Positions 376 through 35,914 of a stretch of DNA of 44,926 nt are shown here, piece after piece. How positions within the stretch are numbered: the first letter of the stretch is position 1; every line of letters begins with the position of its first letter. The position numbers were made by a program, and so were the translations under genes. The notes under the pieces are model-generated. The model did not search any database and was not told the DNA's origin. It saw nothing but the letters and a program-made list of their open reading frames with translations. This stretch comes from Malassezia furfur (Eukaryota). The stretch is taken from the NCBI GenBank assembly GCA_052055015.1, contig JBQJIT010000040.1; one strand, 5' to 3'.

Positions 376-1371
376 ATGCCGGCAGGCCAGCTGGTCGCGC
401 CGTCGCAGACAGAAGAGGCCTTTGTGCTCGAGGCGCTGCAGAGCGCCGCGCTCCGCACGGATGGGCGCAAATTTGCCCAGGCACGCCCCGTGAACATCGC
501 TTTTGGCGAGCAGCTCGGATGGTGTGAGGTGTCGCTGGGGAAGACGGTGTAAGTACACGTGTCCTGACGCAGCGTCGTCGCGTCCGTCGATGCTCTCGTC
601 GTGCCTCCGCGCGAGGAGCGCCCATACGAGGGAATGATCAATATAAATACCGATATCACCCCGATGGCTGGTATGGAGTACGACGCGGGCGGCGTCGCTG
701 GCGCAACCGAATCGCGCGAACGCGAGGCGCTCTTTGATCGCATGATGGAACGTGCGCTGCGCTACACCGAGGCCATTGACCGTGAGGCGCTGTGCATCAT
801 CGCAGGGAAAAAGGTGTGGTGCATCAACTTAACCATCCACCTCGTGTCGGACGAAGGCGCGGCACTGGACGCTGCGGTGTTGGCAAGTTTGGTCGCCTTA
901 CGACACTTCCGTCGGCCGGATGTGACCATCGCCGACGGCGAGGTCATTGTGCATTCACCGGACGAGCGCGTGCCCGTGCCGCTCGCGTGCCACCATCTGC
1001 CGCTGTGTGTGTCGTACGCCGTCTTTTTGCTGCGACCCAAAAGCGACGAGGAACGCAGCCTGCTCCTTGCGCAGTCGCGCACCGCCGCGCGCAACGACCA
1101 AATGGACGAAGACGTGGCGCAGACGGAAGTAGCCGCCGCACTACTCGATCCGTCGCTACTGGAGCAGACGCTGGCGCATACGAGCATAACATTTGTCATC
1201 AACGCTCAGCGCGAAGTGTGCGTGCTTGACAAGGCCGGAGGCGCACCGCTGCCATACCAGACGATTCTTGCGCTTCTGGGGGATGCTGCGAAACGTGCTG
1301 CTGAAATGGCTGCACTCCTGGAACGTGCCCTGGCTGACGACGCCCGTCACCGCGTAGTGTCTGTAGAGTAG
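376..1371 (+). CDS. RRP45: Exosome complex RNase PH-like subunit Rrp45 (EXOSC9)
   Basis: Exon 1 376-548 (LRTDGRKF..GWCEVSLGKT). The 24-nt intron 549-572 (GTAAGT..CTGACGCAG) removes an in-frame TAA. Exon 2 has AIDREALCIIAGKKVW, ALRHFRRPDVT and PVPLACHHLP. Confidence 0.93.
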
Positions 1372-1398
1372 CGCACACGAGATACCCACAACCTCCAC

Positions 1399-2787
1399 AT
1401 GGACGGTGCGCCGCCTGCCGCGGAGGCTCCAGAAGCAGCATGGACGGTGCAGACAGCGCCGCTACCCATCGAGGACCCAGTCGTGGATGTGCAGCGCATG
1501 CATGTGCCATCCTTTGGACCGCGTCCGAGCTACTTGCAGTCTAGTCAGGCACAGCACTGGACGTTTAGCACCGATCAACTCGCGCAACTACGCTCGCAGG
1601 CCAACCAGCAGGCGGCCGACGCCTTGAACCAGTACGCGAGCGACGCCAAGGTACGTACATCCCTGACACAGGAATCGGTTCCAGCGCTACTGAGCGTTGT
1701 AGATGAGCTTGCCATTATTCGCTTCTATCTGCTCCGCATTGGGCGTCTCGTGCGGGCCTTCCAATTGCCGTCGCTCATTGAATCCAGCGCGATGACCCTG
1801 ATGAAGCGCTTCTACTTGCGCAACTCGTGCATGCAGTTTCACCCCAAATTGATCATGTACGTGACATGCTCACCCAGGCTCACGAGCATCTACCTCGCAT
1901 CCAAGGCGGAAAACTACCCCTTGCCCCTCGCCAAGTTCTGTGCGCAGGTCAATGAGGCAAGCGCCGGGAAACAGACACCGACGCCCTCAAAACCCTCGGC
2001 TGCACGCGGCGATGTGACAGAAAGCATCATTCGCGACCTAGAGTTCGGTATGGTACAGAGCCTGGATTTCGAGCTGGCTGTACATGGAGCGCAGCGTGCA
2101 CTCTACGGCCTAATCCTCGACTTCCAAACGCTACCAGACCCGCTCTCACGAGAGGACCTGACGGCGTTTGCAGCGGCAGTGCAGGGATATGTACAGGGTG
2201 CGCGCCTCACCGATGCCGAATTCATCTACGCGCCTCCGCACATTGCGCTGGCCGCATGCTGGATGTGTGAAACGAAAGGACAGTCGGGCAACATTTCGGG
2301 CAAAGATGTTGTCCGGAAATGGCTCACAGCCAAGCGTGAGCGCGCATCTACGGCGCGCGTCGCACAGCTTGAGGCACGCACGAATTGGCGCACCAAGAAG
2401 CACGCCTTGGAAAAGGCGCAGCAGGACGCGTCGTCCAAGCAAGCGCCATCGCCGGCGACGTCCGAGCCGGCTGCTTCATTGGACTACAGTATGGAGCACA
2501 TCAAGGAATCCGGCGGGTTTTTGTCCACCGCGGAGCTCGAGCACATCCTAGATGAGATTGCCGCACAAATCCGCGGCCTGGCGCCGGACATCCCCGCTGG
2601 TGCGCCGCTCAAGCCCCAGGTGGATATGGAGCAGGTGAAGAAAATTGACCTTGCTTTGCGTGCGTGCCTCGTGCTCTTTGAATCGGGCAACCAGTCCAGC
2701 TCGCGGAAACGCAGTGCGCAGGACGACGACGGGCGCGCCAAGCGGCAGCGCACGGACGCCCCCGTGGATAGCGACGACGAATTGTAG
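1399..2787 (+). CDS. CCL1: Cyclin H / Ccl1 (TFIIH CAK cyclin)
   Basis: [28 protein letters not shown] and [17 protein letters not shown]. Two in-frame 21-nt introns, 1651-1671 and 1857-1877; removing the second restores [17 protein letters not shown]. Confidence 0.9.
1857..1877 (+). other. 21-nt in-frame, stop-free intron (CCL1)
   Basis: GTACGTGACATGCTCACCCAG; excision removes a 7-aa insertion from the cyclin-box helix. Confidence 0.85.
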
Positions 2788-2803
2788 CTTCTCCACATCT
2801 GGC

Positions 2804-4875
2804 ATGGCCGCGTCGAGCGAGACGCGCCGCGACGCGTGCCGTCCCATTGCACGGCTCGATGCCGATGTCGTAAACCGCATTGCTGCGGGCGAGATCATTC
2901 ATCGGCCCTCCAACGCACTCAAGGAACTGCTCGAGAACAGCCTCGATGCGGAGGCAACGCAGATCAAAATTACGCTGCAGGACGGCGGGCTTAAACTGTT
3001 GCAGATCCAAGACAACGGCAAGGGTATCCCCGTGCAGGATATGCCACTTCTGTGCGAGCGATTTGCTACGTCGAAACTGCGTGCATTTGCTGACCTCGAG
3101 TCTATGACGACGTTTGGCTTCCGCGGAGAAGCGCTGGCAAGCATCAGCTTTGTCTCTGCGTCCGTCACTGCGGTGAGCAAGACGCGCGACGAGGACGTGG
3201 CCTACCAGTATGTGTCACACCTAACACAGAGCGTCGTATTTTGCCGGCACACTGCAGCCCCCCGCGGAGGGCCAAGAAGCCAGGCCGAAGCCATGTGCAG
3301 GAACCGACGGGACGACCATCACCGTGCGAGACCTCTTCTTCAACGCACCCCAGCGGCGACACGTATTTAAGTCGCCGTCTGAGGAATACAACCGTGCGCT
3401 GGATGTCGCGACCAAGTACGCCATCCACTACGGACATCGAGGGGTCGGCATTTCTGTCAAAAAAGCTGGGTCGTCTTCGTTTGATCTCAACACGCCGGGC
3501 CAGACGGGGCAGTCGACGCTCGACGTGATCCGGAACGTGCACGGTGCAACATTAGCACGCGATCTACTACATCTCCAGCCCTTGCACATGGAGTCGCTTG
3601 GGTGCACCGTTGAAGGTTGGGTTAGCAACGGGAATTGGGCGTCGAAAAAGACCACGTTCCTGTGCTTCATCAACAACCGGCTGGTGGAAAGTGCATCACT
3701 TCGTCGGTCGCTCGACACCATGTATGCCACACTGCTTCCCAAGGGGCGGCATCCATGGATCTATTTGTCACTGTCCATTGTGCCCAACCGCATCGACGTC
3801 AACGTCCATCCCACGAAGCAAGAGGTCCACTTCCTGGAGGAGGACGAAATTGTGGAACGCATCACTGCCTATACCCAAGATATTGTGTCCCAGCACAGCT
3901 CGTGTCGCGTCTTTTCCTCGGGCTCCCCAATGGGAGTCGCAACCTCGGAGAATACCGTGCAAGGTGGGTGCCGTAACTTACCCAGTGCTCGGCCCGCGGC
4001 AAAAGGGCTCAGATCCCCGGCACCTGGTGCGTGTCGACCACCACGCGCAGTCCTTGGATGCGATGATGGCCTCCGACACAGCCTCGGCGCAGCGTGGCCT
4101 GCAGGAACGCATTGCAGAGAGCCCATGCGAACTGACCAGCGTCCAGGAGCTTCGTACGGCGGTGTACCTCAAGCGTAGCGTCCCGCTCTCCGAGGTGATT
4201 CAAAACCATAAGTTTGTCGGCATTGTCGATGCACAGCAGGGGCAGTCACTCATTCAGCATGGCACGCAACTCTATCTCGTGGACCATGCCGCAGTTATTG
4301 AGGAATTTGCGTACCAGCTTGCCTTGCGTCAATTTGCGTCTTTTACGCCGATCCGTTTGGACCCTGCTCCATCGCTACGTGACCTGATCGGTGTGGGATT
4401 TGATGCGGAGGACGATCCGGCTAAGGCGGGCCTGGACCGCGGCGCCGTCGTGCAAAAGATCTACGACACTCTCCTGGCACGCGCCGAGATGCTCGAGGAG
4501 TACTTTGCGATCCGACTCAACGCAGAAGAAGGCACGGTCGAGACGATACCGGCTCTGCTGCCTCGTCACGGTACCATGGGCCTCGTGCTTGAGCGCCTGC
4601 CGTCGCTCTTTTTCCGCCTGGGGCCTCAGGTGGACTGGAGTCACGAAAAAGCATGCCTGGACGGCCTCTGCCGCGAGTTGGCCTATGCGCACGTCCCCTT
4701 CTCAGTGGGCCACACGGGCTTCGAGCAGGACGACGCGTGGACCATCCAGCATGTCTGGTTTGCCAGTTTCCTCGGGTCACGCGGCAAAATGGTGGTCTCC
4801 AAGACACTCGCCGTGCAGGCCTTTGTGCAGGTTGCCAGCCTGCCCGATCTGTACCGCGTCTTCGAACGATGTTAG
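2804..4875 (+). CDS. MLH1: DNA mismatch repair protein MutL homolog Mlh1
   Basis: [47 protein letters not shown] and C-terminal LYRVFERC. The 22-nt introns 3208-3229 and 3964-3985 join three ORF-track frames and restore [19 protein letters not shown]. Confidence 0.96.
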
Positions 4876-4892
4876 GGAAGGGTATATGTACA

Positions 4893-5514
4893 TTATTTTG
4901 TAGCGGAGCCTACGTCAAACACGCTGAGAAGCGCGAAGCACGCGTAGAACAGGCCGACAGGGTAGGCGACCAAGAACCGCTGGTTGTGCATTCCCAGGAT
5001 CGAGACGAAGATGCCGGACGCTGCAGTGCAGCACCAGAGAATGAACAAGGGCGAGATGATGTACCCAAACGTGCTGTTCAGGCGAACGAACACATTCAGG
5101 CAGCTCAGCAGGCACAGAGGCAGCAAGCAGTAGCCTAGCACGCTCGTCACGCGCGACGCATCAATGCCGCCCTCGGACATCAGATTCAAGAGAAAGTAGA
5201 TGGAGAGCACGCCCATGAGCCCCACGCCGTACACATACCCAAACTGCGACTTGCCCGCCTGCGTCAGTGCCTTCAAAACGTACCAGCAGGAGTAGCATGC
5301 CAAACACGAAGCAGAACAGCAGCGGCCCGGCGAGGTCCGTGTCGTCCATCATGTGCGCATCCTTAGGGTGGTCCGGTGAGAACTTGTGGAATGGGTTGAG
5401 CACCGCAAGTGACTTGTCCCAGACATGCGACAAGTTGATGTCGAGCTCTTCCATCAACGATGGCTCGCCGGGGAGGCCTCCCGTGCCAAACGCGCTCAGC
5501 CAGTCCATGCTCAT
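4893..5514 (-). CDS. YIP1: Yip1-domain Golgi/ER membrane protein (YIPF5/Yip1)
   Basis: GEPSLMEELDIN, DTDLAGPLLFC and SVLGYCLLP. The 25-nt intron 5259-5283 gives LLLL|AGKSQFGYVYG. Start is uncertain (5514 or 5508). Confidence 0.9.
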
Positions 5515-6413: not shown

Positions 6414-6447
6414 ACCAGAGCCTTTCTTTCTGTACCATAGACGTTCC

Positions 6448-7468
6448 CTACATGAATCCATTCACACTGAGCTCCATCGCAATGCGCAGCTGCTCCTCCT
6501 CTGGGAGAGACTCAAAGTTGTCCGGCAGACCCTCGAGGGTGCCCGGCTCACTCTCCTGTAGGGCATCGCTGGCCGCCGTCTCGGCGGGTACGTCCGCGAC
6601 CTCGATGGGATCTTCGGTGCCGCCTGGCGCCGGGTCATCGGTCGCGCGAAAGCGTCCAACGTTGCGCGACGCGGTTGTTTCGCTCGGTTTGCGGTACACG
6701 CGGTCCGTACGGAATGCCTGCCGGAACGCCTTGGTGAGGTTGTCCACCTTCACTTCGCCCATGCCCGGCAGCATGGCCAGTTTTTCGGGCGGCGCACGTG
6801 CCATGTCCGCAAGCGACTGGGTGAGGGGAGCCACGTACCCCGATGTGCGTCGACAAGGTCATGACATCTGTCTTGTTTACTCCACGCACGCTCGTCAGTA
6901 CGGCGGCGAGCTGGCTGCCATAGGTCTCGCCGACGCGCGTGCGAATCAGATCGGGCGGGCGCTGTTCAAACGCCTTGTAAGTCTCCAGATACCGCGCCGC
7001 CTCTTCTTGCCTGGATCAGCAAAGGCCACATACGTCCATGCCACTAGCAGCACCATGCGGTTGACCAGTGCAATTTTGGTGAGCTCCTTGATCGCTTGCT
7101 GGTGATCGCTCTTGGATCAGTCGGGACACGTACCACATCGCACAACACGAGGAGGACACGGAGGGTATACATATGTGCGAGTTTCTGGATCCGCATGTGA
7201 ATGTATTCGGGATGCAACCGAAAGTAGCGCAAACTAGGTGAGTTGTGCATCGCGCCTACCTCAAGAAGAGCACGCCGCTCGAGAGACCCACTTGGTAGTC
7301 CGGCACGATATCGGCATACTCCCATGCGACGCCCTTGATGTGCTGCAGAATTGGATTGCCCCTCTGGCAGCTGTTCACCAGGATCGAGTTGGAGGAGGCA
7401 TGCGCGCCGCGGATCAGCGGGTGCGGCCGTGCGCGCTGCGGACTTGCGTCCTCGCGTGCCTGGGCCAT
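6448..7468 (-). CDS. RAD10: DNA excision repair protein ERCC1/Rad10/Swi10
   Basis: Five exons; introns 7234-7259 (26 nt), 7111-7133 (23), 7011-7033 (23) and 6817-6838 (22). Spliced product has ILVNSCQRGNPIL, IVPDYQVG, LFLSLRYFRLHPEYI, VAWTQEEAARYLETYK and the HhH region LTSVRGVNKTD...LPGMGEVKV. Start is tentative. Confidence 0.92.
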
Positions 7469-7600: not shown

Positions 7601-9763
7601 ATGCCTGGGACACTCGCTCTAGCCGCCGCTGCGCTGGTCGGTGTGCTCACGCTGTACTTCCTCAGCGGGGTGCTTTTTGGTGGTGGCGAGTCGAAGCCGG
7701 TGGAGGAAGAGACGCGCGACGACACCAACTTCGTGGAGCGGATGGCGAGCCAAGTACGTTGCGCGCGACTCATGCAGAAAAAACGGCTCGTTGTCTTCTT
7801 TGGTTCGCAGACGGGTACAGCCGAGGAGTATGCTATCCGCCTGGCGCGCGAAGCTAAGGAGCGTTACGGTGTCGGTGTGTTGGTACTCGACATCCAGGAC
7901 GAAGAGATGGACAAGCTCGACCAACTGCCGGAAGATTCGGTTGCGATCTTCGTCATGGCGACGTACGGCGAGGGTGAACCGACGGACAATGCGGTTGAGT
8001 TTATGGAGTTCTTGCGGTCGCCGGATGTCGCCTTCAGCGAGAACTCGACGCTGAACAACGTGCACTACGTCGCGCTCGGCCTCGGCAACAAGACATACGA
8101 AATGTACAACGAGACCATCAAACAGCTCGACGAGCGCATGCACGAGCTGGGTGCACAGCGCATTGGCGAAGTTGGTCTGTGCGACGACGATGCAAGCATC
8201 GAGGAGGACTATCTTGCGTGGAAGGACCCCATGTTTGAGCAGCTCGCGAGCTACCTTAACCTCGAGGAGGGCAACACGGGCGACATGTCCGACTTTACCG
8301 TCACCGAAGCAACTGAGGTCGCAGACGCATCGCGCATCTACCATGGCGAGCACCACCCGCGTGCGCTCAGCGGCGTCAAGGGCAACCACGACGCCCGCAA
8401 CCCGTATCCTGCGAGTGTTGTGCGCACGCATGAGCTGTTTACCGAGGGCATCGCCAGCCGCTCGTGTGTGCACATGGAGTTTGATATTCAGGGCTCCGGC
8501 ATCACCTACCAACACGGTGACCACCTGGCCGTCTGGCCGGTGAACCCGGAGCCGCAGGTCGAGCGGATGCTTGCGGTGCTTGGTCTGCAGGACAAGCGCA
8601 ACACGGTGGTGCACATCAAGTCGCTCGACCCTGCGCTGGCCAAGGTGCCGTTCCCTCAGCCGACGACGTACGAGGCCATTTTCCGGTACTACCTGGACAT
8701 CAACGCGCACGCCAGCCGTCAGGCGCTCGCGAGCTTTGTACCGTTTGCGCCCAACGTCGCGGCGCGCGAGAAGCTCGAGCGTCTGAGCAAGGACCGCGAC
8801 TTTTTTCTGTCGCACGTGAGCGACTACGGCTACAAGCTCGGCGAGGTGCTTCAGATGGTCGCGGGCGACTCGACGCGCGACGAAGACATCTCGTCGTCGA
8901 CTGTGTGGCCCATTCCGTTCGACCGCGTGATCTCGTGCGTGTCGCGCCTGACACCGCGCTTCTACTCGATCTCTTCGAGCCCGAAGCTGTCGCCCGACCG
9001 CATCCACGTCACGGCGGTCGTGCTGCGCTACACGCCGTCTCAGGGTACCAAGGACGTGTACGGTCTTGCGAGCAACTTTATCAGCTCGGTCAAGATGGCG
9101 CAGAACAGCGAGACGCCCGGTCTGGAGGACCCGCGGCACGGCACGCCGCAGTACCACCTGCGCGGCCCGCGCGATGCGTACGTCGACGAGGCTGCCGGCC
9201 AGTACCGTGTGCCGATCCACGTGCGCCGCTCGACCTTCCGGCTGCCAACGAGCACCAAGATCCCGATTATCATGGTCGGCCCCGGCACGGGTGTGTCGCC
9301 TTTCCGTTCGTTTGTACAGGAGCGCGTCGCGAACGCGCTCAAGGCGAAGGTGAAGCTTGGCGCAGATGCGCTGCAAGACTGGGCGGACATTACGCTGTAC
9401 TACGGGTGCCGCCGGAGCAACGAGGACTTCCTGTACAAGGACGAGTGGCCCGAGTACGCCGAGAAGCTCGACAACAAGTTCAACCTGCGTGTTTCGCTGA
9501 GCCGTGAGGTGTTCAACCCAGACGGTTCGAAGAAGTACGTGCAGGACCTCATCTGGGAGGACCGCGAGAAGCTCGCGCACCAGATTCTCCAGCAGCGCGC
9601 CCACGTGTACATCTGCGGTGAGGGCAAAGGCATGGCGCAGGACGTGGAGCACACCCTGGCCAAGATCCTCGGTGAGGCCAAGGGCGGCGGCATTGATGTC
9701 GGCCTGGCGGAACTCAAGGTGCTCAAGGACCGGCACCGTTTGGCGCTGGATGTCTGGTCATAG
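7601..9763 (+). CDS. NCP1: NADPH-cytochrome P450 reductase
   Basis: N-terminal TM anchor, FFGSQTGTAEEYA, ATYGEGEPTDNA, RFYSISSS, MVGPGTGVSPFRSF and C-terminal DVWS. In-frame 24-nt intron 7754-7777. Confidence 0.96.
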   Translation: MPGTLALAAAALVGVLTLYFLSGVLFGGGESKPVEEETRDDTNFVERMASQVRCARLMQKKRLVVFFGSQTGTAEEYAIRLAREAKERYGVGVLVLDIQDEEMDKLDQLPEDSVAIFVMATYGEGEPTDNAVEFMEFLRSPDVAFSENSTLNNVHYVALGLGNKTYEMYNETIKQLDERMHELGAQRIGEVGLCDDDASIEEDYLAWKDPMFEQLASYLNLEEGNTGDMSDFTVTEATEVADASRIYHGEHHPRALSGVKGNHDARNPYPASVVRTHELFTEGIASRSCVHMEFDIQGSGITYQHGDHLAVWPVNPEPQVERMLAVLGLQDKRNTVVHIKSLDPALAKVPFPQPTTYEAIFRYYLDINAHASRQALASFVPFAPNVAAREKLERLSKDRDFFLSHVSDYGYKLGEVLQMVAGDSTRDEDISSSTVWPIPFDRVISCVSRLTPRFYSISSSPKLSPDRIHVTAVVLRYTPSQGTKDVYGLASNFISSVKMAQNSETPGLEDPRHGTPQYHLRGPRDAYVDEAAGQYRVPIHVRRSTFRLPTSTKIPIIMVGPGTGVSPFRSFVQERVANALKAKVKLGADALQDWADITLYYGCRRSNEDFLYKDEWPEYAEKLDNKFNLRVSLSREVFNPDGSKKYVQDLIWEDREKLAHQILQQRAHVYICGEGKGMAQDVEHTLAKILGEAKGGGIDVGLAELKVLKDRHRLALDVWS

Positions 9764-10578
9764 CTACGTAGTCGTATCCGGAGGTGGGAGCATCGCGCCG
9801 TGGTTGGCGAGCCTGCGTTAGTGGGCGCCAGCGTACCGGTCGGCCATCTCGTTGCCGTGCGTGCCGGCGTGCGCGCGCACGTACACGAGCGACGGGCGCG
9901 GCATGCGCGACGTGAGGGCGTGGTCCAGCGAGACAATCAAATCCTTGTTCTGTACGTCGCCGCCCGTGCTGGTACGCCAACCGTTGCGTTTCCACGTAGG
10001 GATCCATTGTGTGACGGCCTTCATTGCGTACTGGCTGTCGGTAAAGATGCGCAGCGGCTTGCTCGGCTCCGGGCATGTCTCGATTGCCCGCAGGATCGCC
10101 GTGAGCTCGGCGCGGTTATTGGTTTGCACGGGGCCGGCCAGGCGGCACGCCAGGTTCAGATGGTGGTAGCGCGCATCGCTCCAGTACACTCCATAGCCAG
10201 CGACCGCGCCATCACGTCCGTTGCCGCGCGACGAGCCGTCGGTGTACACGGTGAGGCCGCCGGGTGTTGCGTCCGGCAGAATGCGCACGGCCTTGGCGGG
10301 CGTGATGAGCTCATTGTCGTCGTCCTCAGCCTTCCGCTTGGGTGGTGCGGGTTTGGGTGCGGGCTTGGGGACAGACGCTACGCGCGGTGCATCCTCGCCT
10401 GCGACAAATGCGTCCGCCTCGGCGCGCGTGGGAAACGCCTTGTATCGGCTGCCGTTGTGCCGCTCGACCTGCGCCCTGCACTGTTCCCTGCGTGAGATGC
10501 GCCGACGTACCACGTTTCGTACACGCCCGGCTTGCGTCCGACGCGCACCGCGTAAAACTTCGTCTGCCGCCGGGCCAT
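9764..10578 (-). CDS. RNH1: Ribonuclease H1 (N-terminal hybrid-binding domain + RNase H domain)
   Basis: FYAVRVGRKPGVYETWEQCRAQV after the 23-nt intron 10488-10510, then VYTDGSSRGNG, QTNNRAEL and IFTDSQY. HGNEMADRLA forms after the 24-nt stop-containing intron 9813-9836. Confidence 0.93.
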
Positions 10579-16546: not shown

Positions 16547-16719
16547 ATATCGGTAGCCGCGATAGCTCACTCGATCTCTTAGCGATTCACTGCTTGCGAG
16601 CCCGTGTGGTTATGCGGCACGATGCCCGACATCGTGACGCCCATAGCCCCTAGCTCCGTGGCGTGTTTGGCCCCGACACGCCGGACGCCGCGACGGACAA
16701 CACTCCTCCACCTGCCAGC

Positions 16720-21558: not shown

Positions 21559-22442
21559 CTACGCTATGGACGGGGACGCGCTGCGCTGGAATCGGACAAC
21601 CATCACAGACGTGTTGTCTGTGCTGAAATTGTCCATTGCGTATTTGAGGAGCTTGTCCGCTGCGACCTGCGCGTCGGTCTCGTTCGAAATATGATCGACG
21701 GCTTCCTGGTCGCCAATAACGTCCCACAGCTGTGTCAGTAGCTCGTACATACACCATCACACGCAACAATGAGGAACGCATCGTCGTCCTCTAGAGCAAT
21801 GCTCGTGGTAAACGGTGAGCCCACCACAAACTCCTTCATCGAAAAGTCGCCAAAGGATCTCGTCACCGCCAACACACCATTCACCCGGTTGTTGAGCAGG
21901 AAGCCGCCCTTCTCAGTAATGCGCCGTGCCTCGAGCTCGTCCGAGCCCTTGTGGTCGTAGGTTAGCCGCACCGCCCTGCCATTCCGAGCGAGTACACTCC
22001 GAGCGTCGCCCACATTTGCCGTGTATAGCACGCGCCGCTCCTTGTCTCCTTCAGACTCGACACGCAGCAGCGACGTCACAGCCGTACATCCGCTCCGGAC
22101 ACCGGCCTTTTCCGAATCCACTTCGAGCTGGCGGTCGACGCGCATGTAAGTATTGTTCAGCACTTCGCGCACGTCCATTGTGGGATGCGCATGCAGTTCT
22201 TCGGCAAGGATGGGCGCAAGGTGGTCGCGACACCACTCCGCCGCAAACTTGCCCGCGTGTCCATCAAACACACCAAACAGCGCCTGGCCGGACACATGGT
22301 CAAAGTCGAGGAGACTCATATGCGCATCCTCCATGGTGCGCCGCCAGCGCGTGTTGCAATCGGTCGCGACTCCAACAGTGATCTGCCATGGGTTCGCACT
22401 GCCTGTCCCTTGCCGCTCCTGCAATGAGCTTTCGGCACGCAT
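21559..22442 (-). CDS. PTC1: Protein phosphatase 2C (Ptc1-like)
   Basis: RRTMEDAH, FGVFDGHAG, LYTANVGDAR and RVNGVLAVTRSFGD. The 23-nt intron 21730-21752 restores LIVACDG|LWDV; STDNTSVMVV follows. Confidence 0.92.
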
Positions 22443-22571: not shown

Positions 22572-23876
22572 CTAAGGACGCCGCTTGTCTCCGCGGCGCG
22601 CAGTGCGCGGCGCGTGCACGGCTGCCTGCGCCAGCTGGGTGAGTTGCAACCGACGTACGAAGTCGAGGTAGAGCTTGGACACGTGTAACGACCATTGCAC
22701 ACTTGCAATTTGTAGGCTCGGCAAGGTCCGAGGGTCGGCAGATGGAGACGGGAGGGTATCATGGTCGACCTCGGGCGTCGTCGCGCGCGCTTCAGTAGGT
22801 GGAGCATCCGGGCCTTCGGGTACTCCGTCAAATGGAGGGGGAGACACCGAATCAAAGCCCGATTCCACTTCGGACTCGAGTGAAAAGTAGCTCGCGTGCG
22901 GCAGACGCATCTCGTCCCCGGAGTCAGACCCAGCCTCATCCAGCAATGTGGGCGACGCATGCGACGCATGCGACGTATGTGCTGCGTCGGTCGCCACCGG
23001 TGCGTCCAAGGCACCAAACACCCAGCCACTGTCGCGCATCGAGCGCCACATTTGTTCGCGGTGGGTTTTGGCGAGCCTGGTCAGTTTGGCCAGGCGCTGT
23101 TCATGCATACGCATGCGGTGCCGGAACGCGTAGTTTTGCAGGTCGGTAAACTTTTCGGCGACTTTCACCGCATTTTCAAAGTGCAGCTGCGCTGTGCGGC
23201 GAACCGAGTCGGGCACGCAAGCAACGACGTTGATGGGCACATGCAAGCTGGGGCCGGGGGTATCGGGGGTATCGTGGGAGGTGGTGAATGTCCCTAGGTA
23301 CAGGGTGAGGAGCCCCAGATAGGTGTGCAGTTGCGGGTTGTGACGGTAAGGGAAGGAGGCAATGACACTGTGTGAGGCAGAGACATACCTGTTGGTCTCC
23401 TCCATGGCGTCTTGATAGCGCCCAGAGGCAATGAGCTCGCGAACCAGATGCGGCAAGACATAGGGACGCTTCGTAAGTGCATGACGTACCAGAACCGTGC
23501 GTGTGCGGGCGATGTACTGCAAGTAGCGCAGCGGTGCCAAAGACTCAGTTTCCGACATGGACGCAACCTCAAGGCCCAATTTCCACAGCTCAATTGGGCG
23601 CCATTCCGGTGCGTGCATCAGGAGCTTGAGGCACCGAGCCGCACGGCGGGTATCGCGACGCAGCAGCATGAGCTGCAAGAGGTCATACAAACGGCGCACG
23701 TGGATCCGGCGCTGATCCGCAAGCACTTTGGGGTTCACTGCGTGCGGGTCGAGTGGATTCGTGTGGGGAGTGAGGTATGATGACGCAGGGATCCCGTGCG
23801 TATACACATAGTCATCGCCATCCATATACGCCGGCGGCGGCTGGAACAGCGCCGCCTGCCTGGGGCCGCCGGCCAT
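22572..23876 (-). CDS. RRN11: Probable RNA polymerase I core-factor subunit Rrn11 (TAF1A-like)
   Basis: HVRRLYDLLQLMLLRRDTRRAARC..LWKLGLEV and FPYRHNPQLHTYLGLL resemble basidiomycete Rrn11 family sequences as I recall them. In-frame micro-introns at 23469-23489 (21 nt), 23368-23388 (21) and 22635-22658 (24). Confidence 0.65.
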   Translation of the reverse strand: MAGGPRQAALFQPPPAYMDGDDYVYTHGIPASSYLTPHTNPLDPHAVNPKVLADQRRIHVRRLYDLLQLMLLRRDTRRAARCLKLLMHAPEWRPIELWKLGLEVASMSETESLAPLRYLQYIARTRTVLVRHALTKRPYVLPHLVRELIASGRYQDAMEETNRYVSASHSVIASFPYRHNPQLHTYLGLLTLYLGTFTTSHDTPDTPGPSLHVPINVVACVPDSVRRTAQLHFENAVKVAEKFTDLQNYAFRHRMRMHEQRLAKLTRLAKTHREQMWRSMRDSGWVFGALDAPVATDAAHTSHASHASPTLLDEAGSDSGDEMRLPHASYFSLESEVESGFDSVSPPPFDGVPEGPDAPPTEARATTPEVDHDTLPSPSADPRTLPSLQIASVQWSLHVSKLYLDFVRRLQLTQLAQAAVHAPRTARRGDKRRP

Positions 23877-23991: not shown

Positions 23992-25953
23992 ATGGTGTAC
24001 GCGAATGACGCAGATGAGCGCACGCCGCTTCTGCAGTCCACGCAGACGTCATCGCGTCAGGAGCGTCGCCCCATGAGTGTCGGTGTCCGTGGGGCAGCGC
24101 CGGCCGACTACGTCGTGAGCGTGTTTGAGCCCGAGCGTGGGGGGAAGAGTCCGTATGCAAACAACCGGCCCGTGAACGATGCCGCCTTCTTCCGGATGAT
24201 GGACGAAATTGAGGCCTCGATGCAGGCCGGCATCCAGCCGCGTATGATTTCGGTTGGGACGAGCGGCTCGTACTTTGTCTACGTGAAGGACGGCGAGTCG
24301 ACGCGGATCGCCGCCGTGTTCAAGCCGATGGACGAGGAGCCGTACGGAAATCTGAAGTATGTGAAGTGCTGACGCAGTCCCAAGCGCGTGTTCCTGCGCA
24401 AGTACTTTTGGTGGGCCATGGGCCGGCCATGGTACGTGATAAGCTCACGCAGTTTGATCCCCAATTTCTCGTACCTGTCCGAGGTCGGCGCATCGTTTCT
24501 TGACAACCAGCTGCAGCTGGGCCTTGTACCGCAGACCCGCCTTGTGGCGCTGTCCAGCCCGTCGTTCCACTACCTGTACCGCGACCGGAAGCGCTACGAG
24601 CGCGGCCTGGCGCCCCTGCCGCCCAAGCTAGGGTCACTACAGCAGTTTTTGACCGATTACAAGAACGCGAGCCAGTTCCTGCACCAGAACCCCCCGCCTG
24701 GGCGCCCGCGCTCGCTGGTCGAGCGCGATCTGAGCGAGGAGCATGCGGCGCACCGGATGAGCCGGCGGAAGCAGCGCGCGCGCTTGCGCATGTGCTTCAT
24801 TGCGATCAAACGGCTGCTGTTGTGCCGCTATGGCCCCGGCCCCTACGGGAGCCCCGGACCGAGCGAGGCAGAGCAGGCGGAGCGCCCGCCGGAGCTCCAC
24901 CTCGGCGGGCAGTCGACCGCGTACCCCGCGGCGGCGCCGATGCGTGCCGGCGCGTCGCGGCGGACGTTTACGTGGAACGCACGCACCATGTCCGAGTTCC
25001 GCCTTGAGCTCGAGAAGCTCGTGGTACTCGACTTTCTCATGCGCAACACGGACCGCGGTCTGGACAACTTCATGGTGCATTACAACCCCGACGCGGGGCC
25101 AGACGAGCGGTCGGTGCGCATCGGGGCAATCGACAATTCGCTGGCGTTCCCCCACCAGCATCCGCGGGGCCTACGCGACTACCCATATGGCTGGCTCTTT
25201 CTGCCGACCAACCTGATCGGCGGCGCGTTTTCCGACGAAACGCGCGCACTCTTCCTCCCGAAGCTGAGCGACCCCGTATGGTGGGCGTCAACGATCGAGG
25301 GACTGCGCCGCATCTTCCGGCAGGACACCCACTTTCACGACCGCATCTTCCAGAACCAGATGGACGTGATGCGCGGCCAGGGCCTCATCCTCGTCGAGTG
25401 TCTCCAGCAGCACGACCAGGGGCCCATCGAGCTGTGTGCATATCCCAAACGTCTGGTACGCCAATCGGTGATGTTTTTGTCGCCACAGGAGCTCGGCAAG
25501 CACACGTTTGCGGACCTCACGCGTGGTCGCATTTCGCGTGCCGACGAGCCGGCCCAGGATACCCAGCCCGTCGCAATCCGCGCGCCGCGCCGGCCCAACG
25601 CTAGCAACGCACATGCAAGCTCGGCACCGAATGCAATCGGCACCGCATTCCCCGCCAGCAACGAGCAGCTGGCGATCGACGTCGTAGAGCGTATCAACGC
25701 GCGCGACAAGCGGGCGTCGATCGCCGCGACACGCCCTCGCCCAATTCACGCGCAGACGTCGCGCCGCGTGAACGAAAGCCCAGTGTTTTCGCGCACCTTG
25801 GACGACACCCCGCGACAGATGCGCTCGCTCGACCTGGCCGAGGGGCCAGAACCTGCCGCCTCTGCCGCCTCCGACCTGCCGCAGGTGCCCGTGCCGGTGG
25901 TGGTCGAGCGCGTTGAGCCCGAGACGCGCCGCCCGTGGCTGTGGTGGTATTAG
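23992..25953 (+). CDS. LSB6: Type II phosphatidylinositol 4-kinase Lsb6
   Basis: GTSGSYFV, VFKPMDEEPYGNL|NPK (21-nt stop-containing intron 24357-24377), GRP|CLIPNFSYLSE (21-nt intron 24432-24452), KLGSLQQF, LDFLMRNTDRGLDN and AIDNSLAFP. Confidence 0.94.
24357..24377 (+). other. 21-nt spliceosomal intron with in-frame stop (LSB6)
   Basis: GTATGTGAAGTGCTGACGCAG contains an in-frame TGA; excision gives the conserved EEPYGNLNPK. Confidence 0.9.
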
Positions 25954-29180: not shown

Positions 29181-30777
29181 TTAGTTTGATCGTGCGTGGA
29201 TGAGCGGTACGACTGTCCATGGGCGCGGTTCGTCTGCGGACGGTTCGGCTGACCCCAGCGCGGCTCGGTGGCATGCGTCGCAGCAGTACGTCACAATTTG
29301 TGCCATGCCATCCAGACGTACTTTCTCGCCATTTTGACTCTTAACCGCATCGCCACCGAGTACGGCTACCGTTGCGTCGCGCATCCCGCCACACACTTCA
29401 CATGGGACATCCTGCTCGCCACGCACCACGAGTTTCCGCGGTGCGTAATATTGCCTAGCGAGTGACGCCAACATCCACCGCCGCAAGAATATGGTCCGTG
29501 GATACGCATCCAACGCCATGCGAGGGAGTAAAGGTCTGGGTCAGAACGCGACGTACTGCGCCCAGTCAATCGTCCATAGGTGTTCACAGTCTCCTCCGTG
29601 CAGCAACCAGTAGGGTTGGGCGAATGCCGTCGGCGGTAATGCATCCAGTCGTGTCGTAAGAGGTCCACCGTACATGGTGCAAGAGGGAAGCCCAGAATCG
29701 GAGGTGCCTAACAGCGCCCGGACGTAGCTGTCGTCCGATTCGGGGTCGAGTCGGGCATACAACTGATTCTCAAGAAGAACGGCGACGTCGGTCTCTAGTC
29801 GGCGCCCGGTGTAGCGTGGGTATGCCGTACCTTGCCCGGCGTCATGGGGCCCTGTCCAGTGTCCTGCAAGGCCGGGTGCATCGTTATGCATGGTTCCACG
29901 CCTACCCTCGCGTTCGGGAATTTCAGCGTTCCGGCACATCATTTCGTCGACCAAATCGGCCAGGGTATGCCGCGTGGTGAGGTGTATGCGCTGGGCAAGA
30001 ATAATCTCGCCATCTATCTCATCCGTCGTCGGTGTTTCAAAAGTGCCGCTTGCGACGCCTACGCGGCTGCGCATCTTGCGCGTCAGGGCAACAGCGCGGC
30101 GAGCGTACACCGAAATCTGCAAAAGGGCGGGTGTACCATCCGTAGGCACGGGTCGTATCGGCTGCGACAGCCGCTGAGGCTGCATTAGCAAAGTGCTTAC
30201 CTTGTTCTCCATCGCGTCCTGATCCTGCACCGAGAGGATGCGCGCATACAGAGGGAGGTTGTCATACCTAGGTCAGCTTCACCACGCACTTGTCCATGCG
30301 AAAAGCCGGCGGCGCCATCTCGGCAATCATCTTACGTTGTTCAGCGCATCCTTCTGGAATATTCATATATGTTCCTGATGCATATTCCATCCAAGTGGCC
30401 GCGATAGTGGGCACCAGATCAGCGTGCGGGACCTCGCACCGTGTGGCTGCTGCTTCGCATCGCTGCTGCACCAGAAGTCTAGCACGTTCGTCGAGTTCCG
30501 TCGTATATAATGGCTGCGTGCACTCCACTGCCAGCCGCTTCTCGGCCTCTACGAGCGGAGCTGGCTCCGTCGGGACACCGAGCTCAAGCTGCGCCGTACT
30601 CATGCACGTCGTCCACGAAGGCACACAGGCCTCCACATCGCGCAGCCCGTCGCCATGAGCGACAGTGCGCTTAGCGTTCACAAAACCCGCGCGGTGATCT
30701 ATGAGTTTAGGCAGGTTGTCTGCAATTGAGTGTACATGAACGATGCAGTCGTGCAATCGGTGCGGGCCGGGTGACAT
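29181..30777 (-). CDS. SNAPC3: snRNA-activating protein complex subunit 3 (SNAP50/SNAPC3)-like
   Basis: PYWLLHGGDCEHLWTID, YPRTIF, CEVC and CCDACH zinc-finger motifs. Introns 30268-30289 (22 nt), 30180-30200 (21, in-frame) and 29536-29556 (21, in-frame TGA) join three ORFs. Confidence 0.75.
29536..29556 (-). other. 21-nt spliceosomal intron with in-frame stop (SNAPC3)
   Basis: GTACGTCGCGTTCTGACCCAG contains an in-frame TGA; excision joins the HxGxCEH segment to the C-terminal Cys motifs. Confidence 0.85.
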
Positions 30778-30802
30778 AGCATAGCATCTACGATGAACAA
30801 TG

Positions 30803-31110
30803 TTACAAGTGCACACCAACAGCGTTAAACAGAGCAACGACGCCGGTGCCCGCAAATAGGCTCGCTCCAACGGCGAGCAATGCTTTTTGCAGGGAACGCT
30901 TGCCGCGCGGGAAGCTGGGTAAGCGGACCACGTACGTCGAGAAGAAGAACGCAAGCGCAAAGGCCAGCACGAGCGAAACTAGCGCAATGGCGCGCATCGC
31001 GTGCACCGGAATCATTGGCCGCGCATCTGGAAGGGTACGAAACTCATCCTGGGGTCAGCCGCTTTCCAACGCACCTGTACCGCTTTGTACGCCGCGTAGT
31101 CCACCGTCAT
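30803..31110 (-). CDS. OST5: Oligosaccharyltransferase small subunit Ost5/TMEM258
   Basis: Spliced ~86-aa two-TM protein MTVDYAAYKAVQ|DEFRTLP..LAFALAFFFST|FPRG..ASLFAGTGVVALFNAVGVHL. Introns 31049-31074 (26 nt) and 30915-30935 (21 nt). Confidence 0.78.
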
Positions 31111-31228
31111 ACCGCTCGGAGTCGACGTGGGACGTGCGGAGATATTCGGCCGATGTGAATTTTGACCCTGCTGTGCAGTGCATCAGGCGATTTTAGGAGG
31201 GCACCACCACCCGGCTAGGCACACAGCG

Positions 31229-32735
31229 ATGAAAGTAGTCGCGGCGGTGGTCAACCGCGGGTTCCGCCGTGTGGAACGCGCGGCCGAGCGCGTCATTGGT
31301 CGTGCCGGCCCCCTGTTTGTCGCCATTTATCTCGGCTTGGTTGGTACAGGCGTTTGGCTGTTCTGTACGTTGCATCACTGACCCAGTCGCGTGTGTTTTC
31401 CCGACGCTCGTCTCGGTTCCTACGCCATTACAGCGCTTGTTCTCGATTGGAAACCCGGGGCATATTTTGCTCGGCCTGCCCATGGCCATACATGACAGCT
31501 GCAGGCAGGAACCGCGTGCGATGCTCCGTTGCGTTTGGCTCACGGTAGGCTGTTTCTACCTGGCATCCATGATGGGCTGGTCTTACTACATGGCTTGCAC
31601 CGAGCCGCCTGGGTCTCCATCGCATGGCATGTCTGAAAAGCTACACGAGCGCCGCATCGGGCCTGGGAGCGGCATGTGGTGGCAACAAAAGTGCGAGCGC
31701 ATTACCAGCGCCACTTTTGGGCTGCCATGCAACGAAGAGGAGGAGGGTCGCGCGCACGACTCGATTCCTTATGCTCACTCGACGTGCGACCGCCTGACGC
31801 CGCGCAAGGTTGCGCCGGGACCCAAAGCTACCTACGAGCCCAACGCCGACCTCTCCACATCTTACCGCTTCTGCAAGAAATGTGCGCAGGTGCCTCTGGT
31901 AGAAGCCATTGCGCGGCTCCCACCTGAGCTGCGTAAGGTTGAAAAATGGAACCGGCGTGACCATCTACTCCGCATGAAGCAGAAGGCGGCGGAGGAAGGT
32001 GCTGCTTCAGCGCAGGATGTCGCAGAACTCTCGTCCAGCCTGCCGCCCGAGCTGTTCATTGACAGTGACGAGGAAAGTTTGTGCGATATTTCACAATGGC
32101 TTGGAGAGGATGCGCAAAACACTGTGCTACCTCCCAAACCAGAGCGCGCGCACCATTGCAAGACATGCAAAATGTGTGTGTTCAAATTTGACCACCACTG
32201 TCCCTGGATTAACCAGTGCGTCGGGCTGGGTAATGAGCGCTACTTTGTCTTGTTCATGCTCTGGTTTTCGCTGGGTACCTCTGTATTTGGCGTAACGGCG
32301 TGGGAAATTGTGAACGAGGCGCTGTGGCACTACAAGTGGCCGTATCGATATGCGCCGCGTGTCTTGTTCATCGCGATCTATGCCAAGGCGGTCGTTATGG
32401 GTGCGGCCGTGTTTGTGCTGGCACTGTGGCACCTCTACCTCGTTTCCAAAGGCGAGACGAGCGTTGAGAGCCAGGACAATGCACACTACCGAAAAATGGC
32501 CAAGGAGCGGAACGACTGCTTTGTGAATGTGTACGATATGGGTCGTCTGCGAAATCTCCAGATCTTCTTTAATGTCGGACGCGGCCTGAAATACGGCTAT
32601 TATACCCTCCTTCTTCCGTGCCGTATCGAGCCCTACTCGGACGGCTGGCGCTATGCCAAGAGCCCCGGCCTGCTAGGCCGCCACATGGGTATCAAGCAAG
32701 AAGAAGAGTTTACCGACGACGACGGCGAGCCTTAG
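31229..32735 (+). CDS. DHHC palmitoyltransferase (ZDHHC16-like)
   Basis: [44 protein letters not shown] and [11 protein letters not shown]. The 22-nt intron 31365-31386 links exon 1 ([19 protein letters not shown]). Confidence 0.92.
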
Positions 32736-32879
32736 GATGAATAAAAATGCTCTTCACATGTAGAGATGCGAAGCTTATGTATAGTGCAGTGACCAATACA
32801 ACTATGGTCTGATGGAGACGAAGCAGGTATGCTAGATTGGTGACAGGGTATAGTCCAGTACAGAATCAGATCGTGTCTT

Positions 32880-34538: not shown

Positions 34539-35247
34539 CTTGGTTTTTTTAAGTTCCCTTCCTGAATTCAGCTAAAGCCGATACTAGTCCAATGGGGACC
34601 CTTCCTGGGGCCATAATCGCAGCAGCCCCGCACTGAATTGCCGCAGGAATGCAAAAGCCATGCGCTACTTGATGCAGAGAATGTGGGGTTTTCTCTTGCT
34701 GACTCGTACGCCTCGCTCAACTTTTTGTCTACAGCCAATCAAGATTGGCAACGCGTGAAAAATGGAAAAAAATGCTCAGCTAAGGACGTGCGAAGCCGCA
34801 ATAAATTTTGCCAGTGCGTGATCGGCTCAGTGAGGGGTTTCCACTGGGCCCCACAGTGGGGGAGATATCCAAGTCGTTGGGAAAGACTTATCATGGTCAG
34901 GTGACACTTGGCCGCAATTTCATTGGTCTGGAGAGACATGGTGAGGAGCGGGAGAAGAGACCACCTCTGATCGTGCCTTTTTGAGGTACACAGCTATGGC
35001 GTGTGCACCGGGGCCTTCCCAGTTCGATAATTGTCGCCTACCGTACAGCCTTCCTGTATTACGCCGTAGTAGAAGGGTTCTGTAACAGTTAGCTTCGTAC
35101 TCCTTAATATCTGCTTGAGCAGTCTGCGTGGCTCCAAGTTGATCTGGCATTACATGCTATAGGTCACGTTCGATCTTAGTGGATGGCGTAAAGCCGACGC
35201 CGCCCGCTAACCACCTCCACTACATCCTCCACACGGCCACCGCCTTG
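34539..35247. promoter_or_regulatory. Long divergent promoter JEN1/Rab with clustered SYGGRG (CreA/Mig1-type) sites
   Basis: Largest intergenic region (~700 bp; about 48% GC in two hand-counted 60-nt lines). SYGGRG matches at 34605, 34626(rc), 34683, 34849(rc), 34856 and 34928. Confidence 0.45.
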
Positions 35248-35914
35248 ATGTCCTCGACACGGCCGTCATGGGATTACATTTTAAAGTTTATTATTATCGG
35301 TGACGCATCCGTCGGCAAGTCATCGCTCCTTGTGCGTTTGACTGAGGACCGGTTTTTGGTGAACTCGGATGCGACGATCGGGATCGAGTTTGGCTCGCAT
35401 ATCATTTCGCTCGAGTCGGGCGAGCGGCTGAAACTCCAGGTGTGGGACACAGCCGGGAGCGAGCAGTTCCGGAGCGTACGTATAAGCAGCGGCTTACACA
35501 GATCACACGCTCTTACTACAAAGGTGCAGCTGGGTGCCTGCTGGTGTATGACGTAACCGTGCGCGACACCTTTGCCCACCTGCCCTCTTGGCTACATGAT
35601 GTGCGCGAACAGGCCGAAGAAAACGCGACGATTGCGCTCGTCGGCAACATGGCCGATCGCCCGGCTGATCAGCGCGCTGTGTCTAAGGAAGAGGCTGAGA
35701 CATTCGCGGCAGAGAATAAGTACGTGACGTCCGCTGATGCAGCCTCTTGTTTTTCGAGACGAGCGCCAAGACGGGCGAGAATGTCGTTGAAGTGTTCACG
35801 GCCGTCGCAAGTGCGATCCTCGCGCGCTACAAAGCCAGCCCACCCGACGAACAACCATCTTCCACAACAGTAGACCCGCGTGCGCGTCCCGCGCAGGGCG
35901 GATGTTGCTCGTGA
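35248..35914 (+). CDS. Rab-family small GTPase (Rab2/4/14-like)
   Basis: IGDASVGKSS, TIGIEFGS, WDTAGSEQFRS|ITRSYY (26-nt intron 35476-35501), LLFFETSAKTGENV after the 23-nt intron 35720-35742, and a C-terminal GGCCS prenylation motif. Confidence 0.9.

Follow-up and report, generated by a model that had tools for sequence, protein, structure and literature searches.

How a spliceosome that requires some 50 nt from donor to branch site in its human form (PMC6692369) can remove introns of 15-25 nt is a standing question. It has been asked chiefly of ciliates, microsporidia and parasitic animals, whose signals are degenerate. The window analyzed here, 44,926 nt of Malassezia furfur DNA, raises it with strong signals, so that both minimum distances involved (15 + 6 nt) can be read straight from the genome. 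The original prediction held that 29 of 35 introns end in one 9-nt cassette, with the branch A fixed at -6 and no polypyrimidine tract.

We called 34 introns within 549-35742, and all 34 have GT...AG ends with a donor consensus. The 3' end of 29 of them is CT[ACGT]A[CT]NNAG; the other five carry the same branch motif with the A further out, at -7 (n = 2), -8 (n = 2) or -11 (n = 1). The 29 cassette ends of the prediction were thus recovered, on a total of 34; its 35th call was not identified. The introns measure 21-26 nt in 32 of 34 cases (12 are 21 nt), the other two being 41 and 48 nt, with a median of 22.5 nt. Across the whole window, donor plus cassette matched 38 times, compared with 5.2 ± 2.7 in 30 dinucleotide shuffles. 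The other 11 spacings showed no enrichment over dinucleotide shuffles in the window alone.

The M. furfur assembly comprises two subgenomes, and the homeologous contig, at 88% identity, was used for comparison. Positions +1, +2, +5, -8, -6, -2 and -1 are kept in 29/29 introns and -9 in 28/29, while the intron middles keep 119 of 186 positions. In the following, the branch A lies at -6 unless stated otherwise, and strands are given in brackets. Pfam positions run continuously across seven splice junctions: in Rad10 at 7111..7133 (-; 23 nt, A at -7, AAG acceptor; 45-77 joined to 79-102, homeolog in agreement) and 7234..7259 (-; 26 nt, TAG acceptor; 1-43/45-77), in the N-terminal domain of RNase H1 at 10488..10510 (-; 23 nt; 1-16/18-44), in ATP5/OSCP at 16162..16184 (+; 23 nt; OSCP 4-67/71-171), in PP2C at 21730..21752 (-; 23 nt; 211/212) and in a Rab GTPase at 35476..35501 (+; 26 nt; Ras 63/64) and 35720..35742 (+; 23 nt; Ras 133/137). 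Three stopless 21-nt introns interrupt GWT1 (17636..17656, 17809..17829 and 17992..18012; +). Their retention creates exact 7-aa insertions relative to homologs, and the independent public M. furfur model WFD47252.1 matches all three junctions.

Retention leads to a stop, with the homeolog in support, for 549..572 (+; 24 nt) in an Rrp45-like exosome gene, where the homeolog keeps the signals, for 24357..24377 (+; 21 nt) in a PI4-kinase and for 29536..29556 (-; 21 nt). In MLH1, retention of 3208..3229 (+; 22 nt) breaks the reading frame, and both homeolog and Pfam agree. Homeolog and reading-frame checks together support 1857..1877 (+; 21 nt, in-frame and stopless) in a cyclin gene, 3964..3985 (+; 22 nt) in MLH1, 5259..5283 (-; 25 nt; also Pfam) in Yip1, 6817..6838 (-; 22 nt, 24 nt in the homeolog) and 7011..7033 (-; 23 nt) in Rad10, 7754..7777 (+; 24 nt, in-frame and stopless) in a gene which we take to be P450 reductase-like, 9813..9836 (-; 24 nt) in RNase H1, 30268..30289 (-; 22 nt, TAG acceptor, AAG in the homeolog) and 31365..31386 (+; 22 nt) in a presumably DHHC-type gene. 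The same two checks support the remaining ATP5/OSCP introns at 15786..15833 (+; 48 nt, A at -11), 15898..15938 (+; 41 nt, A at -8) and 16511..16535 (+; 25 nt, A at -8).

Support comes from the homeolog for 1651..1671 (+; 21 nt, in-frame and stopless, signals kept) in the cyclin gene, 30180..30200 (-; 21 nt, stopless), 30915..30935 (-; 21 nt) in a small membrane-protein gene and 31049..31074 (-; 26 nt, A at -7), whose homeolog has a GC donor. Motif and homeolog alone identify 22635..22658 (-; 24 nt) and 23368..23388 (-; 21 nt), both stopless and in unnamed genes, and 23469..23489 (-; 21 nt, AAG acceptor, TAG in the homeolog). The weakest support of the set is that of 24432..24452 (+; 21 nt, stopless) in the PI4-kinase, since its homeolog is identical. 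Beyond 549-35742, a probable further intron of 26 nt with a branch-like A at -9 lies at 36860..36885 (+) in a presumably Ada2-like gene; the homeolog keeps its ends and has diverged in the middle. Motif matches at 36620-36638 and 36988-37009 were dropped as introns after homeolog and reading-frame checks. Judged by homologs, reading frames, Pfam and WFD47252.1, intron removal restores conserved proteins. With homology, Pfam continuity, the homeolog and one public model in agreement, the reality of the window introns is confirmed as far as sequence comparison reaches.

The signals were then followed across the genome, where donor plus cassette matched 3,776 times against 120 for a reversed-pattern control; the shortest intron among the 100 genome-wide matches listed is 21 nt. 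By these motif counts M. furfur has thousands of 21-26-nt introns. Spacing and composition were measured in a sample of 395 kb with 251 motif-called introns (about 37 of the 251 expected to be false) and with reversed-sequence controls. Outside the window, introns were called by motif and up to a maximum length, so that long or weak ones are undercounted. When positions were freed singly, C was found at -9 in 123/130, T at -8 in 123/131, A at -6 in 123/129 and a pyrimidine at -5 in 123/124. The third branch position, predicted to be fully degenerate, does accept all four bases but is skewed to G and C (G 52, C 42, T 15, A 14; n = 123). Likewise, the AAG and TAG acceptors said to be tolerated both occur, but rarely (CAG 117, TAG 6, AAG 1; n = 124). 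The base before the cassette is a purine in 196/251, which gives a branch motif RCTNAY, and donor +4 is C in 167/251; overall the signals read GTAYGT ... RCTNAY ... YAG. The claimed absence of a polypyrimidine tract was borne out, as intron middles contain 49.6% C+T compared with 49.9% in the exon flanks and T runs of at least 4 occur in only 8/251 introns. The data also support the broader claim of spliceosomal introns with juxtaposed branch point and acceptor.

On the donor side, the sample contained 57 branch adenines at +16 (2.6 expected), 1 at +15 (4.3) and 2 at +14 (1.7). This 5' floor was seen at every spacing between branch A and acceptor, resulting in minimum lengths of 21, 22, 23 and 24 nt. 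For the distance from branch A to the 3' end, observed versus control counts were 18 vs 12.1 at -5, 184 vs 31 at -6, 48 vs 18 at -7, 37 vs 15.5 at -8, 36 vs 9.5 at -9 and 15 vs 13.8 at -10. Some 66% of the excess over control falls at -6 and the rest at -7 to -9, with 99% within -6 to -9; the distance is a narrow mode and not a single value. Introns near the floor are more often of the -6 type (odds ratio 2.7-2.9), which makes the two distances partly dependent on each other. Fifteen nucleotides from donor to branch A plus 6 nt from A to the end give the 21-nt minimum intron. In human splicing the minimum from donor to branch site is about 50-52 nt (PMC6692369). Judged from these genomic counts, the 15-nt floor, which was absent from the original prediction, is the larger anomaly compared with the 3' spacing. 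Our main reading, to which we assign a probability of about 0.72, is that these are U2-type introns pressed against two floors, with the A at +16 or beyond and at least 6 nt to the end.

The prediction of a fixed ruler, with the acceptor set at exactly 6 nt past the branch A, was not supported as stated; on such a ruler, the -7 to -9 introns would be mis-called or use another A. A strict ruler would fit the -6 position of 29/34 window introns and of most of the genome-sample excess, as well as the 75% of near-floor introns that are -6. Against this, the -7, -8 and -9 classes exceed controls 2.4- to 3.8-fold, the -7 intron of Rad10 is fixed by Pfam continuity and the -8 and -11 introns of OSCP by reading frame and homeolog. 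Furthermore, AG is purged from exon +1 to +5 behind -6 introns (2, 0, 5, 6 and 1 of 240, compared with 11.3 expected), which a ruler does not require and which suggests that nearby acceptors compete. A single spacing blind to nearby AGs was not what we found, and we regard a strict ruler as highly unlikely; on the counts, the spacing is a floor, with about one third of the excess at -7 to -9. A different objection is that in-frame segments of 21 or 24 nt are largely kept or poorly spliced and act as coding insertions. Of the window introns, 17 are in frame (3n) and twelve of these lack a stop; none of the three GWT1 introns is removed in two NCBI M. furfur models, and microsporidian tiny introns are reported to splice inefficiently (PMC13644364). 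However, the GWT1 insertions break gap-free conserved blocks, the third model removes all three, intron middles diverge like neutral sequence around invariant signals, and in M. sympodialis, whose introns average 30 nt, RNA-seq supports 5,271/5,350 of them (PMC5389616). Selection for stop codons in 3n introns was suggestive only (22/54 vs 23/92, p = 0.063; 146 of 257 introns with confident phase). We consider coding insertions barely credible. Stopless introns of 21 and 24 nt escape gene finders, and two of three NCBI GWT1 models carry false 7-residue insertions.

It is unlikely, in our estimate, that the floors chiefly reflect a remodelled assembly, with a diverged U1 or little U1 pairing (U2, then the U6 ACAGAGA) and no normal A complex. 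The 15-nt span, set against about 50 nt in humans, would suit such a pathway, as would the prevalent C at donor +4 and an N-terminal domain of U1-70K that scores only 30 bits. In addition, U2, U5 and U6 snRNAs were found at once, while U1 was not: RF00003 (Rfam, two runs) gave no match with 41 of 173 candidates scored, and seven pattern searches based on U1 motifs or the shared snRNA promoter gave none either. The promoter searches returned only U2 and U5; for one pattern, 100 of 270 matches were listed, with loci for 30. The U1 candidate loci inspected with cmscan were reverse-strand donors or coding DNA, which does not imply that U1 is absent. Against a remodelled assembly, the genome encodes U1-70K as well as a zinc finger of U1C type, the Rfam search scored just that part of its candidates, and the assembly of 1,856 contigs holds U2 in one subgenome only. 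As U1 was not found, the donor side of the two-floor model is incomplete. Compensatory changes in U2 or U6 were rejected. The recognition sequences of U2, U5 and U6 are canonical; opposite the canonical U2 branch-recognition sequence, the introns fix C, T, A and Y with a purine upstream. No pairing of U2 or U6 with the introns was found to reach past the core. The pairing registers +1..+6 (U1) and about +11..+17 (U2) do not overlap. It seems plausible that U1 and U2 would be unable to bind one intron together.

Among the protein factors, the inspection of U2AF65 gave a positive result. All six RNP aromatics are kept in 0/20 Malassezia-type proteins versus 99/99 other fungal proteins. In the Malassezia type, the RRMs share an identity of 0.29-0.55 with those of distant fungi, compared with 0.48-0.80 in smut relatives; the UHM shows no such drop, and both ULM and UHM are kept. 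The U2AF65 RRMs thus look partly decayed throughout the genus, matching the lack of a pyrimidine tract. Co-evolution of U2AF65 and the pyrimidine tract was reportedly described by Schwartz et al. in 2008, which may partly pre-empt this result. The counterparts of human K260 and F304, two residues important for poly-U binding (PMC3616741), are still present in RRM2, and RNA binding may therefore be weakened rather than lost. The U2AF35/U2AF1 gene lies in the window (35953..36711, -; E 3e-80 to S. pombe U2AF23); in the alignment, both zinc fingers and the UHM are intact and a conserved N-terminal segment is lost. Neither SF1 nor SF3B1, as far as the latter was recovered, shows truncation, so that a truncated SF1 or an altered SF3B1 HEAT region was ruled out for the recovered parts (the SF3B1 N-terminus is off-contig). 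Slu7 is dispensable below 9 nt, and seven nucleotides are ordered in the P complex (10.1101/212811). The short spacing is not explained by a loss of Slu7, Prp18 or Fyv6, as all three are present, and there is no sign of simplification in the step-2 machinery. The window further contains a CCCH + RING gene (43020..44009, +; Pfam zf-CCCH and RING), presumably a Cwc24-like spliceosome factor.

The signals, both floors, the -7 to -9 tail, the missing pyrimidine tract and the eroded U2AF65 RRMs are shown here at the level of genome and protein sequence. In the two-floor model, most introns would sit at or near both floors. SF1 would read RCUNAY beside U2AF35 zinc fingers reading YAG, with U2AF65 serving mainly as a protein tether through its ULM and UHM. 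U2 pairing would span some 5-6 nt and leave a position free ahead of the bulged A; the lariat loop minimum would be 16 nt, and the acceptor would be the first AG at or past a steric minimum in a short window instead of a counted position. The U6/5'SS and U2/branch helices in their extended human form, together with a linker, do not fit into 15 nt, so each of the two would be trimmed and assembly would be sequential or rearranged. Tentatively, Malassezia may have evolved an assembly across 15 nt in which an RNA-blind U2AF65 tethers SF1 to U2AF35, both sitting on one fused element of 10 nt, with U1 snRNA either altered past the reach of Rfam or reduced in role and no canonical cross-intron A complex. 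If true, a yeast of the Dikarya that can be cultured would possess a tiny-intron spliceosome, with U2/U5/U6, SF3B1 and step-2 factors otherwise intact. Malassezia grows in culture, which puts extracts, lariat mapping and cryo-EM within reach.

We found no paper on Malassezia intron architecture in the literature covered, which mostly excluded subscription papers, and no mention of Malassezia in the Sales-Lee preprint. A metagenome scan for relatives gave one match, L095, a bacterial false positive. Published annotations agree on short introns in comparable number within the genus: a mean of 30 nt in M. sympodialis (PMC5389616) and a mean of 37.2 and median of 30 in M. restricta (PMC9241646), for which the minimum intron was set to 15-20 (PMC6473144). 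In their available parts they report averages, without branch geometry, floors or splicing-factor changes. Myxozoans, dicyemids and microsporidia have sub-30-nt introns (median 22-27 nt) with an absent or very short pyrimidine tract, as in M. furfur, but only GTa/AG remains of their signals, and their U2AF is described as conserved (PMC13644364); the accessible part of that paper names ciliates, Microsporidia, Dicyemida and myxozoans as exceptions, leaving Malassezia unmentioned.

Two systems come closest. Yarrowia lipolytica has 719 introns with a median of 204 nt, a strict ACTAAC and an AC spacer (Irimia and Roy 2008, PMC2483917). As in M. furfur, just 2 nt separate the branch motif from the final AG (A at -6), and a polypyrimidine tract is missing. 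M. furfur differs in having thousands of introns, whose median length is about 23-24 nt; its RCTNAY is degenerate, its branch spacing has a tail at -7 to -9, and a 5' floor of 15 nt applies. Of the constrained class formed by Yarrowia, Trichomonas and Giardia, M. furfur shares the short anchored spacing and the missing tract, but not the strict WCTRAY in an intron-poor genome: C or T occupies the third position in 115/251 introns, and introns number in the thousands. Stentor coeruleus has introns of 15-16 nt, in which position 10 of 15 is the branch A (PMC9505925). It resembles M. furfur in thousands of tiny introns, a branch A at -6, canonical U2/U6 recognition and the presence of U2AF1 and U2AF2 orthologs. 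Stentor introns are shorter, with a lariat loop of 10 nt, near-fixed in length and AU-rich, and only the branch A is conserved, whereas M. furfur combines a strong donor and branch consensus with GC-rich DNA and lengths that decay from the floor; it thus falls outside the heterotrich class, where nearly all introns are AU-rich, 15-16 nt long and without branch consensus. In summary, the comparison supports the convergence with Yarrowia, in its 2 nt between branch motif and AG, and with Stentor, in the placement of its branch A, that the original prediction had proposed.

A donor followed within ~40 nt by the intron end CTNAYNNAG (the cassette) was found 38 times in the window, against 5.2±2.7 in 30 shuffles. 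With GTAYGT donors only, the genome-wide count was 3,776 against 120 for the reversed pattern. Between 549 and 35742 we called 34 introns instead of the 35 originally predicted. Of the 34, 29 end in the cassette; the other five have longer spacing, with the branch A at -7, -7, -8, -8 and -11 from the intron 3' end. Taking the GTAYGT-donor and -6-spacing fractions as ~2/3 each, arithmetic gives ~8,000 introns for the two subgenomes combined, a number consistent with the 5,350 of haploid M. sympodialis (PMC5389616). The window is gene-dense eukaryotic DNA (GC 53-71%) from an assembly of 13.68 Mb in 1,856 contigs. Proteins under the name Malassezia furfur agree with its GWT1 at 483 of 486 residues and with its U2AF35 at 251 of 252. 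A homeologous contig, C33, is collinear with the window at ~88% identity, as expected of doubled M. furfur hybrid assemblies (PMC4634964). Relative to this homeolog, an 8-nt insertion at ~11272-11280 causes a frameshift in a gene that we take to be Dbf4-like, which reflects either a disrupted allele or a fault in the assembly. A low-GC (53%) stretch at 32466-34744, with a membrane-transporter-like ORF lacking introns, aligns to C33 in two places, which suggests a tandem duplication in the homeolog.

Four lines of sequence evidence indicate that the window segments are introns. In GWT1 (16720-18177), three stopless 21-nt segments each stand as an insertion of exactly seven residues relative to fungal homologs, in an alignment of 15 of 120 matches; two of these 15 are themselves predictions that leave near-identical DNA unspliced. 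Of three NCBI M. furfur models, KAI3613466.1 and KAI3623779.1 keep all three segments in, and WFD47252.1 removes them at the junctions called here; the latter is 779 aa long, apparently through fusion to the next gene. Pfam positions continue across the junctions in Rad10 (43/45 and 77/79), PP2C (211/212), the Ras-family Rab GTPase (63/64 and 133/137), RNase H1 (16/18) and OSCP (67/71), in a scan of 27 segments of which five had no match. In named genes, retention of introns whose length is not a multiple of three shortens the ORF. Finally, the homeolog keeps positions +1, +2, +5, -8, -6, -2 and -1 in 29/29 cassette introns, -9 in 28 and -7 in 23; intron middles are conserved at 119/186 positions versus 318/348 in exon flanks. 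Support is weaker for the stopless multiple-of-three introns of unnamed genes at 22635, 23368 and 23469, and for the intron at 24432, whose sequence is identical in the homeolog. In the genome sample, 22/54 multiple-of-three introns contain an in-frame stop versus 23/92 others (p = 0.063), an enrichment that is weak at best; stopless 21-nt introns are tolerated in large number.

The core set comprises 251 calls, 37 of them expected to be false, with a median length of 24 nt; the branch A was limited to +32 from the donor, so that longer introns are undercounted by design. Its donors, searched as seven hexamers, were GTACGT (122), GTATGT (45), GTGCGT (25), GTAGGT (21), GTACGC (20), GTAAGT (12) and GTATGC (6). 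Donor +4 is C in 167/251, a mismatch to the U6 ACAGAGA adenosine that may be linked to METTL16/SNRNP27K variation. The branch consensus is RCTNAY (purine in 196/251). Its third position, originally described as fully degenerate, accepts all four bases with a G/C skew (G101 C82 A35 T33, n=251), and the tolerated TAG and AAG acceptors proved rare (6 and 1 of 124, with 117 CAG). Intron middles equal exon flanks in base composition, so the core set has no pyrimidine tract at any place within the intron, as predicted. The intron at 31049-31074 (minus strand), whose homeologous copy opens with GC instead of GT, belongs, with that at 30915-30935, to a separate gene of ~86 aa.

Geometry was measured from donors in 394,926 nt (the window and parts of four further contigs, 2.9% of the assembly), with reversed sequence as control. 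The branch A was observed at -5 in 18 cases (12.1 expected), at -6 in 184 (31.0), at -7 in 48 (18.1), at -8 in 37 (15.5), at -9 in 36 (9.5) and at -10 in 15 (13.8); -6 to -9 account for 66, 13, 9 and 11% of the excess. A stricter donor set gave 128, 31, 23 and 17 versus 9, 6, 5 and 4. Thus -6 is floor and mode and no constant, which speaks against the strict ruler of the original prediction, with the 3' splice site at a fixed 6 nt from the branch A. Such a ruler would not need purging of AGs near the acceptor. After -6 introns, AG starts at exon +1 to +5 in 2, 0, 5, 6 and 1 of 240 against 11.3 expected, in a set that includes loci fetched for other searches, some picked by donor-like patterns and some homeologous; an unbiased set gave 2, 0, 2, 4 and 1 of 125 against 5.8. 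This depletion fits competition within a window of positions. The 5' side has a floor as well: the branch A lies at +16 in 57 cases (2.6 expected), +17 in 52 and +18 in 35, and at +15 in one (4.3 expected) and +14 in two (1.7 expected). This floor is equal for every 3' spacing, with shortest introns of 21, 22, 23 and 24 nt for A at -6, -7, -8 and -9, so the 21-nt limit equals 15 + 6. Splicing in HeLa extract is lost when donor and branch are 46 nt apart, and the human B complex points to ~52 nt (PMC6692369). The ATP5/OSCP gene (15750-16547) holds three of the five long-spacing introns of the window and both introns >40 nt; its first, of 48 nt, is 94% identical in the homeolog. In the U1-70K, Fyv6 and Prp18 genes the branch A lies beyond -6 in 9/11 motif-called introns versus ~1/3 elsewhere; this difference, noted post hoc, could reflect feedback control.

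Among the splicing proteins, U2AF65 (N-terminus off-contig), one of the factors originally proposed for inspection, has eroded RRMs. It keeps three of six RNP aromatic positions, and all six are kept in 0/20 Malassezia-type proteins (the query, six with a Malassezia name and 13 without a name that were classed by rank and sequence, one of the 13 once the alignment had been viewed) versus 99/99 other fungi (two of 101 outgroup rows dropped for gaps). RRM1 and RRM2 diverge faster than in smut relatives; the UHM does not. The equivalent of human N289 is D; those of K260 and F304, which are important for poly-U binding (PMC3616741), are kept. U2AF35 (35953-36711, minus strand, no introns) conserves both zinc fingers and has lost its N-terminal segment, as have four named Malassezia proteins aligned; in the S. 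pombe structure this segment does not touch RNA (PMC7505975). SF1 and SF3B1, also proposed for inspection, show no truncation in the parts recovered: SF3B1 gives an alignment of 1,292 bits over residues 399-1304, and SF1 keeps what we take to be the ULM-like motif, helix-hairpin, KH domain and zinc knuckles. In SF3B1 the human K666 position is R; E622, R625, H662 and K700 are kept. Slu7, Prp18, Fyv6, U1-70K and a U1C-type finger are all present, as is a Cwc24-like CCCH/RING spliceosome factor (43020-44009, plus strand, no introns).

One U2, two U5 and two U6 snRNA copies were found, with canonical U2 branch-recognition, U5 loop 1 and U6 ACAGAGA sequences. U1 snRNA did not turn up in the assembly, which has U2 in one subgenome only, either in two Rfam searches or in seven answered searches by pattern; the Rfam search scored 41 of 173 candidates, and one pattern listed 100 of 270 matches, with loci for 30 that lie outside this negative result. 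An AACGGCC element lies upstream of the U2, U5 and U6 genes alike; U2 and U5 have in addition a second upstream element and a TATA box, and their Sm sites end in UUUUUCGA. Genome-wide, the two-element promoter pattern returned only the three Pol II snRNA loci (U2, U5).

We consider it likely (probability about 0.7) that the major spliceosome works here on introns squeezed to its own steric limits. The SF1 footprint is ~7 nt around the branch A. U2AF35 holds positions -3 to +1 (PMC7505975), so a branch A at -6 would bring both footprints edge to edge, leaving neither room nor need for tract binding, and U2AF65 may serve as a tether between them. The acceptor would be the first AG beyond the floor, within a few nt, a distance that would nearly match the seven nucleotides seen ordered in the P complex of yeast (10.1101/212811). 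About 4 nt would lie between the pairing registers of U1 and U2.

The literature searched contained no report on Malassezia intron architecture or U2AF65, some of which subscription papers, a published Malassezia intron size distribution (Figure S8) and supplementary tables of fungal intron surveys could contain; the available text of PMC8476143, PMC3560662 and PMC12862383 has nothing on Malassezia intron architecture. Short Malassezia introns have been published as averages (PMC5389616, PMC9241646, PMC6473144). Judged from the DNA, M. furfur introns with tight geometry are real. Tiny introns occur in ciliates, microsporidia, dicyemids and myxozoans (PMC13644364), and M. furfur shares its 3' geometry with Yarrowia (PMC2483917) and Stentor (PMC9505925).
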